Assembly: GCA_964016885.1 (NCBI GenBank)
Contig: OZ024749.1
Coordinates: 22,754,001 to 22,818,000, forward strand
Source: Eledone cirrhosa
Lineage: Eukaryota
Direction of reading: 5' to 3'
DNA: 64,000 bases
In this document: piece by piece, positions 1,520 through 53,626 of the stretch
How positions within the stretch are numbered: position 1 is the first letter of the stretch
How the letters are laid out: the number at the start of each line of letters is the position of its first letter
Position numbers and translations under genes: made by a program
Notes under the pieces: model-generated
Databases searched by the model: none
What the model was told of the DNA's origin: nothing
Seen by the model: only the letters and a program-made list of their open reading frames with translations

Positions 1520-1631
1520 GTATTAATAACAATTGTTTCATTAGTCCGGTGTGTCTAAACATCGCTGAACGTTAGAAGCCACGTCATTCGATTTTAAATA
1601 CAGTCGATACTCGAGCAAATCATCAGAATAC
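1520..1631 (-). ncRNA. Candidate type I hammerhead ribozyme with long stem II insert (family G)
   Basis: Minus strand reads GTATT-CTGATGA-(~80 nt)-GAAAC AATT GTT-ATT-AATAC, with a palindromic stem III. Stem I register and stem II base are imperfect. Its 3' tail (1466-1521) is mirrored at 1346-1400 across a (TA)n tract. Confidence 0.4.
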
Positions 1632-3720
1632 TGATCTGTGTACATGTATTACCTTAAAGAATTTCTTGTTAACTTATATATATATATATAGTAATAATAA
1701 TAAATATGAAGACTAAAATCCGAAGAGGGCTCAATAAGGATAATATATATATCAAATATATAAAAACCGTAGAGCAAATTTTTATTAAAATAACATATTA
1801 AAGTTTAAGCAAAGAATCGCTGCGATTCTTTGCTTAAACTTTAATGCGTTATATTAATATATATATATATATATATATATATATATATATATATATATAT
1901 ATATATATAAGTTGACGGGAGTATAAGGTTTTCCTGCTATAAAAGATATACGGAAAAGTATCTTTCATATATCAAGTACATACATATAAGGTTAAATAAT
2001 AAATGTTCTCTCTCATAGAAAGAACCAAGCTAATATTGTCTAAAGCTCACTCATACGGTCGTTTCATGATACATTTCAGAATATGTTGCCTATATTGGAT
2101 CTAATGATTGGGCTGATTCACCAATATATATGTACAGAGAGAGAGAGAGAGAGAGAGTGAGAGAGAGAGAGAGAGATACAGACAGAGATACAGACAGAGA
2201 GAGAGAGAGAGAGAGTGAGAGAGAGAGAGAGAGATACAGACAGAGATACAGACAGAGAGAGGGAAAGGGAGAGAGAGATTAAAAAAGATAAACACAAAAA
2301 TTCAATTACATAAAATCTAATTCACGGCTGTTGGAAAAGGAAGACCCTCATTTCAACCAACGTAACGGACGTTAGACTTTCATCAAAGGGAAGAACGATA
2401 GTAGAAAGAGGAAGTTGTGAGGAGGAAGTAAAAGAAATACACACACATATATATAATATATATATTTACACACACACACACACACACACACACACACACA
2501 CACACACACACACACACACACACACACAGACTCTCTCTCTCTCATACACACATATATTTATATATGAGGGGGTGTTTAAGATACTATTGTACTTAAACAT
2601 TAATTGAATAAGTACTTCGTGTAAGTGAATATACACTGGGTTGTCAAGCATGAAATTTGTAGAATGTACCTTTCTTCTACAACATTCTACAAATTTCATA
2701 CATGATGCTCCAATATATATATATCTGTGTGTATGTGTATATGTATATGTATATATATACACATAGTATGTGTATATATATATATATTTATATATATATA
2801 TATATATATATATATATACGTATATGTGTGTGTGTGTGTATATATATTGTTTCAGTACTGAGGGCTATAATCATGAATCATTAGGATAAATGGAGATAAT
2901 TTCATTACGAGTGCATGGTAGGATTTATTTACCAATATCCCTAATCAAAACTTTCTCCAATGTGTAAATCAATACTACATGTTCTAGATACAATAACCCC
3001 CCCCCCCATATATATATAATATATATATATTATATTATATACATATATTATATCATATATATATTATCGTTATATATATATATATATTTATATATATATA
3101 TATAAAGAGAGAGAGAGAGGGGAGTGAGAGGGAGAGAGAGAGAGAGAGAGATATGTATATAGAGTATATATATCAAAAAATATATATATATGTAAAAGGT
3201 AAACAGAAATAACAACACAGTCGGTACAGTATGTTGAAGGGATATATTAGATGTATATGTATATATATATATATATGTATATATATATATATATATATAT
3301 ATATATATATATATATGGTTATTATTTATTAAGGCTTTCCAGTTTGATAAATTAATTACTTGAGAACATGGTAGAAGCTGTGCTTCAGTTGTGGTAGATT
3401 CATAGCTAAGTAAATTGTCCTTAAGGAACTATAACATTTCTTTCAGATACTTTTTTTTGTATTTTTGTGGGAAAATGGTGGTAACGTTTTATCAGGTTTC
3501 AGACGTTGTTGATTATAAACTTTGTAAGATACAGAGTTCGATGTTTTGTAGTGACTTCTCGCCACTTTTTCTGTCCTTGAGCAAGATAAAGTACATACTG
3601 GAAACTACGCATATAGTGCTCAATTTGGTGAACCAGCAATAACTTGACGTTACAATCCTTAATATATATATATATATATACGATATTAATAAATGGAAAC
3701 TATATTTATAAAAACATATT

Positions 3721-3785
3721 TATTTCATTATACATATTTCAGGGATACCAAATTAAATTATGGTATGCCTTCATCAGACAAAATA
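3721..3785 (-). ncRNA. Type I hammerhead ribozyme (family A)
   Basis: Minus strand reads TATTTTGT-CTGATGA-AGGCATACCA/TGGTATCCCT-GAAA-TA TG TATA-ATGAAATA. Intact core, 8-bp stem I with G-U pairs, AUA cleavage triplet. Confidence 0.7.
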
Positions 3786-50568: not shown

Positions 50569-50760
50569 ATTATTTCTGAAGACAGCATATATATGTGTAG
50601 TTATGTATATTCCCTCTGATAGTTTGTATAAATATTGTACATAGATCTATAGAATATGCATACCAACTCTAACACATATATATCCTAGAAACGATCGTAA
50701 AATGATGAATTTTTTTAATATAAGGAACTGTTTCTTTGTTTATTCATTATTTTATTAATT
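50569..50760 (+). mobile_element. Solo PLE terminus family B with intact long-stem-II HHR (50569-50706)
   Basis: Nearly identical to the reverse complement of 5040-5234. CTGAAGA at 50576 and GAAACGATCGTA at 50688. Confidence 0.8.
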
Positions 50761-51284
50761 TATATATATATATATATATATATATATATATATATATATA
50801 TATATAACAAAGGAATTGTGGTAAGGAGCCAAATGGACCATAACGCACCAGAGTACTCAATACTTGGGGTAGTAGAGTGGGAAATAGGAAAATGTATGAC
50901 CCCGACGGCAGAGCTCAAGCCGTTTCGACGGCTATTTCTGAGTCTAGAAATAGCCGTCGAAACAGATTGACCTCTGACGTCGGGGTCATAGATTTTCCTA
51001 TATATATATATACAAGTTAATATAAATTAATATATGATAAACACCAATATAAACATATAAGCGTTTGTATTGTAAACGACCAATTAGATTAATACAGTTT
51101 GCCTGTTTCGATCTAAAATAATAAATCAATAAAAACAAACCCATATTGGCAATATATATATATAATGTATGTATATATATATATAATGTATGTATATATA
51201 TATACATATATATATATATATATATATATAATGTATGCATATATATATATATATATATATACATACATATATATATATATATAT

Positions 51285-53626
51285 ATGAGAGTATTGAAGT
51301 TTGCTTGAAGCATTGTGGAACAATAAGTAAATATCTTTTAGTCGTTTGGAAGCCTCGACAATGCAAATTGGTAAATCTCCGGGTGACAAGGTCCGGTGGT
51401 GAAGAGAGAGATGTAAGTGGGTGTACGTTGAGATGCGTGGTGTGTATAAGATGTGTGAGATGTGTAGAATGAAGGAAAGAGTATAAAGGATAGAATAAAA
51501 ATAACAACACAAGAGAGAGTTACCTTGGGAGAGATTTAATAGTCCCTATATATTTCGGATTCACATCCATCAACTGGGGGTTTTTTCCGGGGTTGGGGAA
51601 AAGGTTGTCTGTCGGACAGGTCCGGAACGCGTACTTCGCCTTTTGTTGTTTTGAATATCTGAGGTATTCGGCAGAGCGCGCGTGCGCGTGAAATGGGGTC
51701 GGTCGTACAGAGGTCAGCGGCCGAATGAGGGAGTGGGATGGCGCTAGCTGCCAGTTCATTCTCTGCCTGTTTGTTAAATGTTACTGTGTGTGTGTGTGCG
51801 TGTGTTGTTGTCTCGCTTGTGTGTGTGTGTGCGTGTGTTGTTTGTTGTTTCATCGCTTGTTAACTTAAACCAGCCATCTGATTTCGCTTCTCTCTGATTG
51901 GTTGTTTATTTGCGGTTGCAGTCGTTTGATAAAAAGCGCTTCCTTGATACTCCCTCATTCGGCCGCTGACCTCTGTACGACCGACCCCATTTCACGCGCA
52001 CGCGCGCTCTGCCGAATACCTCAGATATTCAAAACAACAAACAGCGAAGGACGCATTCCGGACCTGTCCGACAGACAACCTTTTCCCCTACACCGGAAAA
52101 ACTCCCAGTTGATGGATGTGAATCCGAAATAAATAGGGACTATTAAATCTCTCCCAAGGTAACTCTCTCTTGTGTTGTTAATTTTATTCTATCCTTTATA
52201 CTCTTCCCATCATTCTACACATCTTATACACACCACGCATCTCAACGTACACCCACTTACATCTCTCTCTCTCCACCACCGGACCTTGTTACCCGGAGAT
52301 TTACCCATTTGCATTGTCGAGGCTTCCAAACGACTTAAACATATTTACATATATATATATATATATATATATGAGAGTATTGAAGTTTGCTTGAAGCATT
52401 GTGGAACAATAAGTAAATATTTATAAGTCGTTTGGAAGCCACGACAATGCAGATGGGTAAATCTCCGGGTAACAAGGTCCGGTGGTGGAGAGAGAGATAT
52501 GTAAGTGGGTGTACGTTGAGATGCGTGGTGTGTATAAGATGTGTGAGAAGTGTAGAATGAAGGGAAGAGTAAAAGAATAAAAATAATAATAACAACACAA
52601 GAGAGAGAGTTACCTTGGGAGAGATTTAATAGTCCCTATATATTTCGGATTCACATCCATCAACTGGGGTTTTTTCCGGGGTGGGGGAAAAGGTTGTCTG
52701 TCGGACAACTCGGAACGCGTCTTTCGCTGTCTGTTGATTTGAATATCTGAGGTATTCGGCCGAGCGCGCGTGCGCGTGAAATGGGGTTGGTCGTACAGAG
52801 GTCAGCGGCCCAATGAGGGAGTGGGATAGCGCTAGCTGTCAGTCCATTCTCTGCCTGTTTCTTAAATGTTACTGTGTGTGTGTGTGCGTGAGTTGTTGTC
52901 TCGCTTGAGTGTGTGTGTGTGTGTGCGTGTGTTGTTGCCTTGTTCATCTGTATTGGCAGTGTAGTATGTTCGTATGGTGGAATGCTACTGTGTGTTTGTG
53001 TGCGTGTGTGTGTGTGTGTGTAGTTGTCTCGTTTGCGTGTGTGTGTGTGTGCGTGTGTTGTGTGTTGTTGCATCGCTTGTTAACTTAAACCAGCCATTTC
53101 ATTTCGCTTCTCTCTAATCGGTTGTTTATTTGCGGTTGCAGTTGTTTGGTAAGAAGCGCTTCCATAATACGTAACGTGCCGACGTTTCTTTCAGTCGCTA
53201 GAATTGACAGCTAGCGCTATCCCACTCCCTCATACGGCCGCTGACCTCTGTACGACCGACCCCATTTCACGCGCACGCGCGCTCGGCCGAATACCTCAGA
53301 TATTCAAATCAACAGTCAGCGAAAGACGCGTTCCGAGTTGTCCGACAGACAACCTTTTCCCCCACCCCAGAAAAAACTCAAGTTGATGGATGTGAATCCG
53401 AAATATATAGGGACTATTAAATCTCTCCCAAGGTAACTCTCTCTCTCTCTTGTGTTGTTATAATTCTTTTTATTCTTTTACTCTTCCCTTCATTCTACAC
53501 ATCTCACACATCTTATACACACCACGCATCTCAACGTACACCCACGTACATATCTCTCTCTCCACCACCGGACCTTGTTACCCGGAGATTTACCCATCTG
53601 CATTGTCGAGGCTTCGAAACGACTTA
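51285..53626. mobile_element. Tandem duplicate of a fold-back element (family F): four ~400-bp arms
   Basis: Arms at 51340-51730 (-), 51950-52337 (+), 52425-52840 (-) and 53205-53626 (+). Shared spacers and a shared 60-bp leader GAGAGTATTGAAGTTTGC. Confidence 0.85.

Follow-up and report, generated by a model that had tools for sequence, protein, structure and literature searches.

Hammerhead motifs of the window

The window analyzed here is a 64,000-nucleotide (nt) stretch of the Eledone cirrhosa genome (assembly GCA_964016885.1, 3.0 Gb; contig OZ024749.1, positions 22,754,001 to 22,818,000, forward strand), which is AT-rich and abounds in TA, CA and GA microsatellites. It contains numerous motifs with the layout of type I hammerhead ribozymes. 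As judged from sequence and genomic context, we consider it very probable that these are hammerhead-fold 3' ends of several families of Penelope-like elements (PLEs), mostly of the Hydra clade, left as stubs at (TA)n, and that they likely cut the element transcript to unit length. An earlier note, made from the window sequence alone, had listed 13 such sites and read them as a hidden system of ribozyme-bearing mini-elements mobilized by PLEs.

All 13 sites proved to be type I layouts or decayed copies of one; Table 1 gives their coordinates in corrected form. A type I descriptor (the union of four descriptors specifying stem I, CUGANGA, stem II, GAAA, a palindromic or hairpin stem III, and UH) matched the window 7 times, versus a mean of 0.04 (maximum 1) in 100 block-wise dinucleotide shuffles that kept simple repeats in place; the comparison with shuffled sequence that the earlier note had called for thus gave a clear excess. 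Matches were likewise in excess in the adjoining 200 kb (31 versus 0.25 shuffled) and in 59 spaced 10-kb stretches of the genome (39 versus 0.2). Six of the 13 listed copies passed the canonical descriptor (3729, 5104, 15513, 46679, 48163 and 50576), and the seventh window match, at 1087, was absent from the list. Sites that failed either carry variant cores (CCGAAGA in family E, UUGAUAA in F, CAGUUGA in I) or are worn (1520 and 12360). The motif at 48163, previously ranked as weak, is in fact strong. The sites belong to nine repeat families, A to I, each with hundreds to thousands of genomic copies, and four overlooked families (J, K, M and N) add to these; the proposed multiplicity of families stands, with nine listed families rather than six. 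The hammerhead-shaped motifs of the window are real.

For 12 of the 13 sites, the distance to a (TA)6 run is at most 300 nt, which holds for 47% of window positions, in agreement with the TA-flanked location first described; the site at 12360, 1000 nt away, is the sole listed site far from such a run. A search of the window with Rfam models returned no hammerhead at gathering score, and nothing for the 48163 and 46679 motifs at E≤10. In a run ranked by E value, the best 150 of 219 matches were all to miRNA-type models driven by microsatellites.

Conservation of fold and core

Stem III self-pairs, as palindrome or hairpin, at 27 of 30 loci collected with no stem III filter, versus 6.2 expected (maximum 14 in 2000 shuffles). 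As first described, stem III is mostly palindromic, yet families G, J and K have a hairpin stem III. In a B-like alignment, whose structure was drawn from one member and is biased in that member's favor, 96% of cells were paired, a value reached by 0 of 500 shuffles and contrasting with 32–55% in slid controls. Thirteen of its 14 rows were usable, with L354 (alignment A4) contributing only stem III. Two-sided changes occurred in 17 of 21 pairs and spanned stems I, II and III, so covariation, another of the checks proposed at the outset, is present in all three stems. Within domain II, covariation was seen in 7 of 19 pairs of family H and in 10 of 37 pairs of family A, the latter mostly from two distant rows.

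The core is conserved over its flanks. Across 13 families, shared variants occupied 5 of 78 core columns versus 69 of 312 flank columns (p=0.001), although three of the five variant core columns come from family A, where misaligned truncated rows were left in the set. N7 columns carried shared variants in 5 of 13 families. The canonical CUGANGA/GAAA/NUH core characterizes families A, B, C, D, G, N and part of H and K, while a U3.A8 covariant core occurs in F and K. In the 59 stretches, U3.A8 cores were enriched (8 versus 1.4 shuffled), whereas single changes of the pair were not (1 versus 0.5 and 0 versus 0.6). G5, G8, A9, GAAA and the UH site stay constant, N7 is variable, and the C3-G8 pair is exchanged by covariation for U3-A8; in these alignments, this is the pattern of selection on catalysis. 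As a separate observation, genomic loci collected here (L041-L099, L345-L364 and others) form 20 multi-member hammerhead sequence clusters, several with a domain II of 90–107 nt and perfect palindromes of 8–10 nt.

Penelope-like elements upstream of the motifs

Reverse transcriptase (RT) and endonuclease (EN) frames lie upstream of the ribozyme, on the same strand, in families A, B, C, E, I, J, D and H. From these frames, seven of the nine listed families (A, B, C, E, H, I and D) are recognized as 3' ends of 5'-truncated autonomous PLEs, five of them Hydra-clade and two other PLEs, and not as mini-elements. One open reading frame (ORF) encodes RT with a C-terminal GIY-YIG EN; frames extend 832 codons in E (unbroken), 712 in J, 695 in B and 521 in A, and are broken in C and H. 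As far as the frames extend, RWR/RWK, DKT, CxCX5C, CxxC and CxH motifs are present in A, B, C, E and J. Family H was assigned via RT and EN fragments at 32–53% identity, with EN located 600–800 nt upstream in L369-L371.

Longer copies define whole units of 3258 base pairs (bp) in J, 3417 bp in C, 4034 bp in B (a hammerhead-ORF-hammerhead unit in L176) and 4173–4189 bp in E, above the <3 kb typical of Hydra. A broken Hydra ORF lies between two family C repeats in L183 and L184. The full family E element, with its unbroken frame, is found in L265 and L267; long E copies are 98–99.9% identical, and the one homologue of the protein with a species name is from Argonauta, at 39% identity. In the window, the previously noted hammerhead downstream of a PLE GIY-YIG ORF was borne out, as the frame at 6523-7197(-) and the 5104 hammerhead form one element. 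This element is 94% identical over 2160 nt to locus L032, whose ORF holds both RT and EN, although the window frame itself had no Pfam match. Its 3' untranslated region (UTR) also holds a tandem duplication of ~100 nt (6333-6547, minus strand) with a CUGAUGA but no complete hammerhead.

Families D and I are, by their frames, non-Hydra PLEs. In D, an ORF lies upstream in L383, L253 and L255, and a Neptune-type linker (CX2-5CxxC; here CX4CxxC before EN) is present in L383. Family I has an ORF upstream in 14 of 25 loci, with an RVT_1 match, a weak GIY-YIG match and no match to the linker. No parent ORF was found among the loci of family F. We rejected a 451-nt retrozyme as an explanation for F, because the tandem copy in L372 includes a TA tract and thus reflects local duplication. 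Elsewhere, L194 contains a 754-codon non-Hydra PLE frame (6138-8399, minus strand) with a partial family N hammerhead ~850 nt downstream. Features of the window are listed in Table 1.

Table 1. Hammerhead motifs and associated elements in the window, with assignments predicted from motifs and family matches
Feature	Position	Strand	Remarks
Family J inverted pair	654..790	.	Overlooked by the earlier note; putative Hydra PLE 3' end (3258-bp unit), U4A core CAGAAGA
Family K hammerhead	1087..1158	-	Overlooked by the earlier note; 9-bp stem III
Family H worn hammerhead	1528..1626	-	Putative Hydra PLE 3' end; 82-nt domain II, U.U base
Family B hammerhead	3729..3777	-	Putative Hydra PLE 3' end; 8-bp stem I, palindromic stem III
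Family A 5'-truncated PLE, putative Hydra clade	5040..7197	-	Partial EN ORF, ~1.3 kb 3' UTR, hammerhead, ends at (TA)n
Family A hammerhead	5104..5227	-	9-bp stem I, CUGAAGA, 103-nt domain II with C.A base; palindrome ACGAUCGU, cleavage triplet GUA
Predicted GIY-YIG-type EN, C-terminal	6523..7197	-	By motifs: CxCX5C linker, CxxC, CxH
Family A hammerhead, older, decayed	10225..10348	-	~82% identical
Family F hammerhead	11024..11061	+	Weak stem I, U3.A8 core (UUGAUAA); no parent element found
Family F hammerhead, second copy	11508..11545	-	U16.1 damaged; converges on (TC)n(TA)n tract
Family D decayed copy	12362..12389	+	Family match
Family D minimal hammerhead	15513..15540	+	Putative non-Hydra PLE 3' end; stem I 2 bp here, 4 bp in family
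Family M motif	15781-15815	+	CUGAAGA-stem II-GAAA, non-palindromic stem III; overlooked, abundant in sample
Family K relative	32684-32763	-	U3.A8 core
Family C hammerhead	46679..46725	-	Putative Hydra PLE 3' end; 9-bp stem II, stem III ACCA-C-UGGU
Family A inverted pair	47077..47560	.	Damaged cores; tail extension on right copy
Family G, 1.35 turns of 631-nt unit	47650..48502	+	Non-coding, circularly permuted, retrozyme-like; ends at the TA site that is fixed in the family
Family G hammerhead, monomer type	48163..48232	+	6-bp stem I in family, 6-bp stem II base, 8-bp hairpin stem III
Family E inverted pair	48997..50485	.	Putative 5'-truncated Hydra PLE 3' ends; ORF-start piece at junction
Family E hammerhead	49044..49082	-	U4C core CCGAAGA, near-palindromic stem II, palindromic stem III
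Family E hammerhead, second copy	50400..50438	+	Family match
Family A hammerhead	50576..50699	+	By descriptor; copy 5'-truncated to 200 nt, with a TA tract on either side
Family I, four truncated copies (two inverted pairs)	51323..53645	.	Putative non-Hydra PLE; CAGUUGA hammerhead-like motif
Family I motifs	51547-51576, 52106-52135, 52637-52666, 53380-53409	-, +, -, +	CAGUUGA core
Family N worn hammerhead	53817..53847	+	Overlooked by the earlier note; family match

Insertion at TA tracts

The distance from GAAA to the first downstream (TA)5 has a sharp mode in most families (B, 60; C, 49; E, 54; J, 42–46; A, 75; H, 70; G, 281 nt), whereas only 10% of control positions lie within 100 nt of (TA)5 (median, 1644 nt). 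Tail-bearing copies form a second mode, and families D, F and I show a wider spread. Where element and tract meet, the element itself continues with TA-type letters, which fits priming by microhomology. In full elements, sequence past the ribozyme continues into the start of the ORF, so that the unit is circularly permuted like that of the circle model of PMC4209133 (here and below, cited papers are represented by the portions of their text available to us).

In most copies, the sequence 5' of the core is shorter than ~250 nt, and the 5' ends are scattered rather than fixed. Relative to the 5' edge of the ribozyme, 38 of 235 ends lie at -10 to 25 nt, versus 18 at 26 to 60 nt, a count that is uneven across families and anchor-biased. 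Inverted partners accompany 4–11 of 20–30 loci in the Hydra families, 0 of 20 in D and 0 of 25 in G; by hand count, 46 of the first 100 family A matches listed, of 4043, stand in divergent pairs less than 7 kb apart. Short 5' reach and inverted partners together account for the island look of the motifs. Palindromic dimers were dropped as the cause of inverted pairs, as family J, with a hairpin, has pairs and family D, with a palindrome, has none. We also observed inverted repeats centered on (TA)n with converging 3' ends at 1344-1505, 52287-52475 and 10974-11618 of the window; in a genome sample, such inverted flanks occurred at 3 of 224 TA tracts versus 0 of 53 CA tracts. These possibly reflect insertions next to each other or TA breaks mended by fold-back repair.

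The numbering of hammerhead positions and the target-primed mechanism follow established knowledge. In the scheme we propose, a transcript spanning two hammerheads would self-cleave and then be ligated into a circle, with dimeric cleavage through a palindromic stem III predicted for families A, B, D, E, F, H and I, and monomeric cleavage for G, J and K. The GIY-YIG EN would nick (TA)n, and the nicked strand would anneal to an internal TA stretch past the ribozyme, ~45–75 nt after GAAA in Hydra families and ~280 nt in G. RT would then copy back through the ribozyme, usually halting within a few hundred bases, and a second priming event may yield the inverted partner. Most stubs are presumably dead on arrival, selection having acted on master elements. 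Family G likely relies on borrowed TA-targeting machinery of this kind, whose RT could exceed one round of the circle.

A 631-nt non-coding unit

All family G copies examined fit one 631-nt unit with one type I hammerhead, in which N7 takes all four bases. The unit showed no coding or ORF similarity; of the mini-element claim, it is the part that holds, F being a family for which no parent element was found. Copies occur as partial, 1- to 3-mer and array forms. When the anchor was placed outside the ribozyme, 24 of the 25 loci that are not part of an array, some representing the same insertion, had a chain that terminates in (TA)n at unit position 270, the exception being L394. The 5' ends are scattered: one starts exactly at the cleavage site, most copies cross it seamlessly and several run for more than one turn. 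Copies that cross the cleavage site do not stem from a linear cleaved monomer, which leaves a circle or an uncleaved multimer as template. A fixed internal TA end would be expected if a circle were reverse-transcribed from a primer at TA, and in insertion L150 the two turns, 0.8% apart, are closer to each other than to any other copy. By the layout of its copies, family G is likely a retrozyme-like unit copied from an RNA circle.

Some observations weigh against a circular template. Among dispersed G copies of more than one turn, the partner turn was nearer than the median copy in 15 of 15 cases but the closest of all in only 5 of 15, and the circle is only mildly more structured than shuffled sequence (58% paired; z -1.75 versus 40 shuffles). 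It is possible, if rather unlikely, that G was instead copied from linear multimeric array transcripts, or by a non-Hydra RT, be it from a LINE or from another PLE. Five further loci (L399-L403) do lie in an array of at least 12 units; its units, however, differ mostly by 4–8%, many with damaged ribozymes, in contrast to the near-identical turns of L150. With regard to the enzyme, G is without inverted partners, unlike Hydra copies; non-Hydra family D likewise has none and also ends in TA or CA tracts, and a weak AT-rich match was the only sequence link found between G and PLEs. Separately, derivation of G from a PLE was considered and rejected: the AT-rich match reached 66% (E 4e-4), and no translated match was better than E 0.01.

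Variant cores and the role of cleavage

Three families depart from the canonical core while keeping the stems and other core positions. U4C is present in 35 of 35 family E copies, with the full CCGAAGA core in 31; CAGAAGA (U4A) is found in 39 of 47 copies of J, which also has a U.U base and U17; and CAGUUGA (U4A+A6U) in 35 of 41 copies of I. U3-A8 covariation, the U10.1-U11.1 mismatch and U4C are on record (PMC3088659), and U-turn changes are generally slow in vitro (PMC9901934). Either cleavage persists in the E, J and I variants, or these elements can do without it.

Several findings count against cleaving 3' ends of mostly Hydra-clade PLEs. By published mutagenesis (PMC3088659, PMC9901934) the E, J and I cores are predicted to be slow, yet these families are abundant, and cleavage may therefore be unneeded. 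The hammerhead is missing from the minimum-energy fold of several copies folded singly (B, D, E and J). Hydra assignment of A, B, C, E, H and J rests on motifs and not on an RT tree; the link of D to an ORF stems from three loci only, and F has no linked ORF.

We consider it improbable that the ribozymes are passengers or relics, such that uncleaved read-through transcripts transpose and the fold is kept for protein binding, dimerization or 3'-end definition. The variant cores speak for it, as the most abundant family, J, combines three departures, and E, with U4C throughout, has near-identical copies and an unbroken frame. In addition, copies end downstream of the cleavage site rather than at it, and PLEs lacking hammerheads proliferate well (Craig et al., PMC8557442). 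Fixation of G5, G8, A9, GAAA and UH alongside a variable N7, together with the C3-G8 to U3-A8 exchange, argues against mere passengers.

Even more doubtful is the view of the islands as non-autonomous ribozyme mini-elements mobilized by PLEs in trans. The brevity of most copies, the non-coding unit of G and the orphan status of F would suit it, but 5' ends are scattered and longer copies of seven of nine families enter RT-EN ORFs; apart from G and perhaps F, the view is largely refuted. An origin by chance in AT-rich, repetitive DNA is refuted and has a negligible probability, for although CUGANGA alone occurs 26 times in this AT-rich window versus 14–26 times in shuffles, complete motifs covary and are more than 100 times as frequent as in shuffles.

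Census and relation to known systems

The 59 stretches contain 66 canonical-core motifs per Mb (bootstrap 41–93), a density that excludes family J, which the descriptor misses, and that derives from stretches at round coordinates on large contigs and a descriptor tuned on this window. Scaled to the assembly, this estimate likely corresponds to ~200,000 motifs (120,000–280,000) genome-wide. Exact anchor patterns, for which reversed-pattern controls all gave 0, counted 4043 copies of A, 5958 of B, 1988 of C, 4516 of D, 5235 of E, 2576 of H and 2575 of I in the genome, with 285 and 753 for two G anchors, 234 for F (≤1 mismatch allowed) and 25,882 for J, the most abundant family. The largest hammerhead count that we found in available portions of the literature is 126,247 in axolotl. 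We found no cephalopod hammerhead census in the literature, and ribozymes are not mentioned in the main text of a 2026 Octopus vulgaris repeat annotation.

The basic system of PLE hammerheads and (TA)n targeting is already known. Hydra-clade PLEs that carry 3' hammerheads and insert into (TA)n were published in 2021 (Craig et al., PMC8557442), among them Hydra-1_Obim from Octopus bimaculoides, so the system was not hidden; of the earlier interpretation, PLE-linked type I hammerheads, many families and (TA)n targeting remain. The elements described here resemble those PLEs in the single RT plus C-terminal EN ORF with RWK/RWR, DKT, CxCX5C, CxxC and CxH motifs, the 3' type I hammerhead with a frequent stem II base mismatch, the (TA)n target, and inverted 5'-truncated partners. 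In protein and stem III, the family that by eye most resembles Hydra-1_Obim is C. Unlike published Hydra elements (PMC8557442), at least six Hydra families occur in one window; units measure 3.3–4.2 kb, compared to mostly <3 kb, with 3' UTRs of up to ~1.5 kb; domain II spans 80–105 nt in A and H where the published table has short loops; and loop-less 8-nt palindromes and family-fixed U4C/U4A cores occur that are absent from that table.

A 2014 paper (Cervera and de la Pena, PMC4209133) described dispersed hammerheads, single or on opposite strands, that derive from truncated PLEs. Ours are like these minimal motifs in their dispersal, opposite-strand pairs 100–700 bp apart, palindromic stem III, U3-A8 covariation and many families per genome, family D being a textbook example. 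They differ in number, ~200,000 estimated here versus 2,000–9,000, and in that many have long stems I and II.

Like metazoan non-LTR retrozymes (Cervera and de la Pena 2020, PMC7229834; Li et al. 2026, 10.64898/2026.07.22.740005), G is non-coding, has one type I hammerhead per repeat and occurs as partial, 1- to 3-mer and array copies. Those retrozymes measure 170–400 nt, whereas G has 631 nt and a long monomer-type stem III. PLE mobilization of retrozymes is proposed in both papers with the mechanism not fixed, and their available text holds no description that we could find of a fixed internal TA priming site. Similarly, U4A and U4A+A6U, fixed here in families of thousands, were not found in the portions of Perreault et al. 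2011 (PMC3088659) at hand.

What is new here is the scale, the architecture, the variants of the core and a single retrozyme-like unit whose insertion signature is clean. Some of the core variants may already be covered by the small PLE hammerhead variants that Lunse et al. reportedly described in 2017. In the available literature, we found no earlier account of a density of 66/Mb, a domain II of 80–105 nt, family-fixed U4C, U4A or U4A+A6U, or the anatomy of G. We tentatively propose, as a conjunction that may well not hold in full, that this genome represents the largest hammerhead census (~200,000), a 631-nt retrozyme circle primed at TA in Hydra fashion, and, in highly successful elements, rewired cores (U4A, U4A+A6U) and a 100-nt domain II that still cleave. 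If true, a non-LTR retrozyme would be tied to its PLE partner by mechanism, and the space of active hammerheads would be extended. These points touch on two questions of the literature, namely whether PLEs need hammerheads and which enzyme moves animal retrozymes. Family E, young and with an unbroken ORF and variant core, and family G, non-coding and with its fixed TA priming site, are suited to testing these. Moreover, dozens of independently evolved hammerheads constitute a natural mutational library, and ~200,000 motifs undetected by Rfam matter for annotation.

Other repeats of the window

Several LINE fragments with RVT_1 matches, which we take to be L1/Tx1-like, occupy 37071-42712 on the minus strand. 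A weak zf-RVT match at 54723-55094(-), followed by what by eye is a restriction-like endonuclease-type tail, is probably another non-LTR element. Tandem repeats with periods of 43–164 nt and without complete hammerheads are located at 17736-18349, 26020-26831, 33561-33921 and 34803-35159. Finally, a SINE-like repeat of ~180 nt is abundant (481-663, 20972-21113, 43015-43467, 56176-58221 and others), and in one family A subfamily it lies directly 5' of hammerhead stem I.

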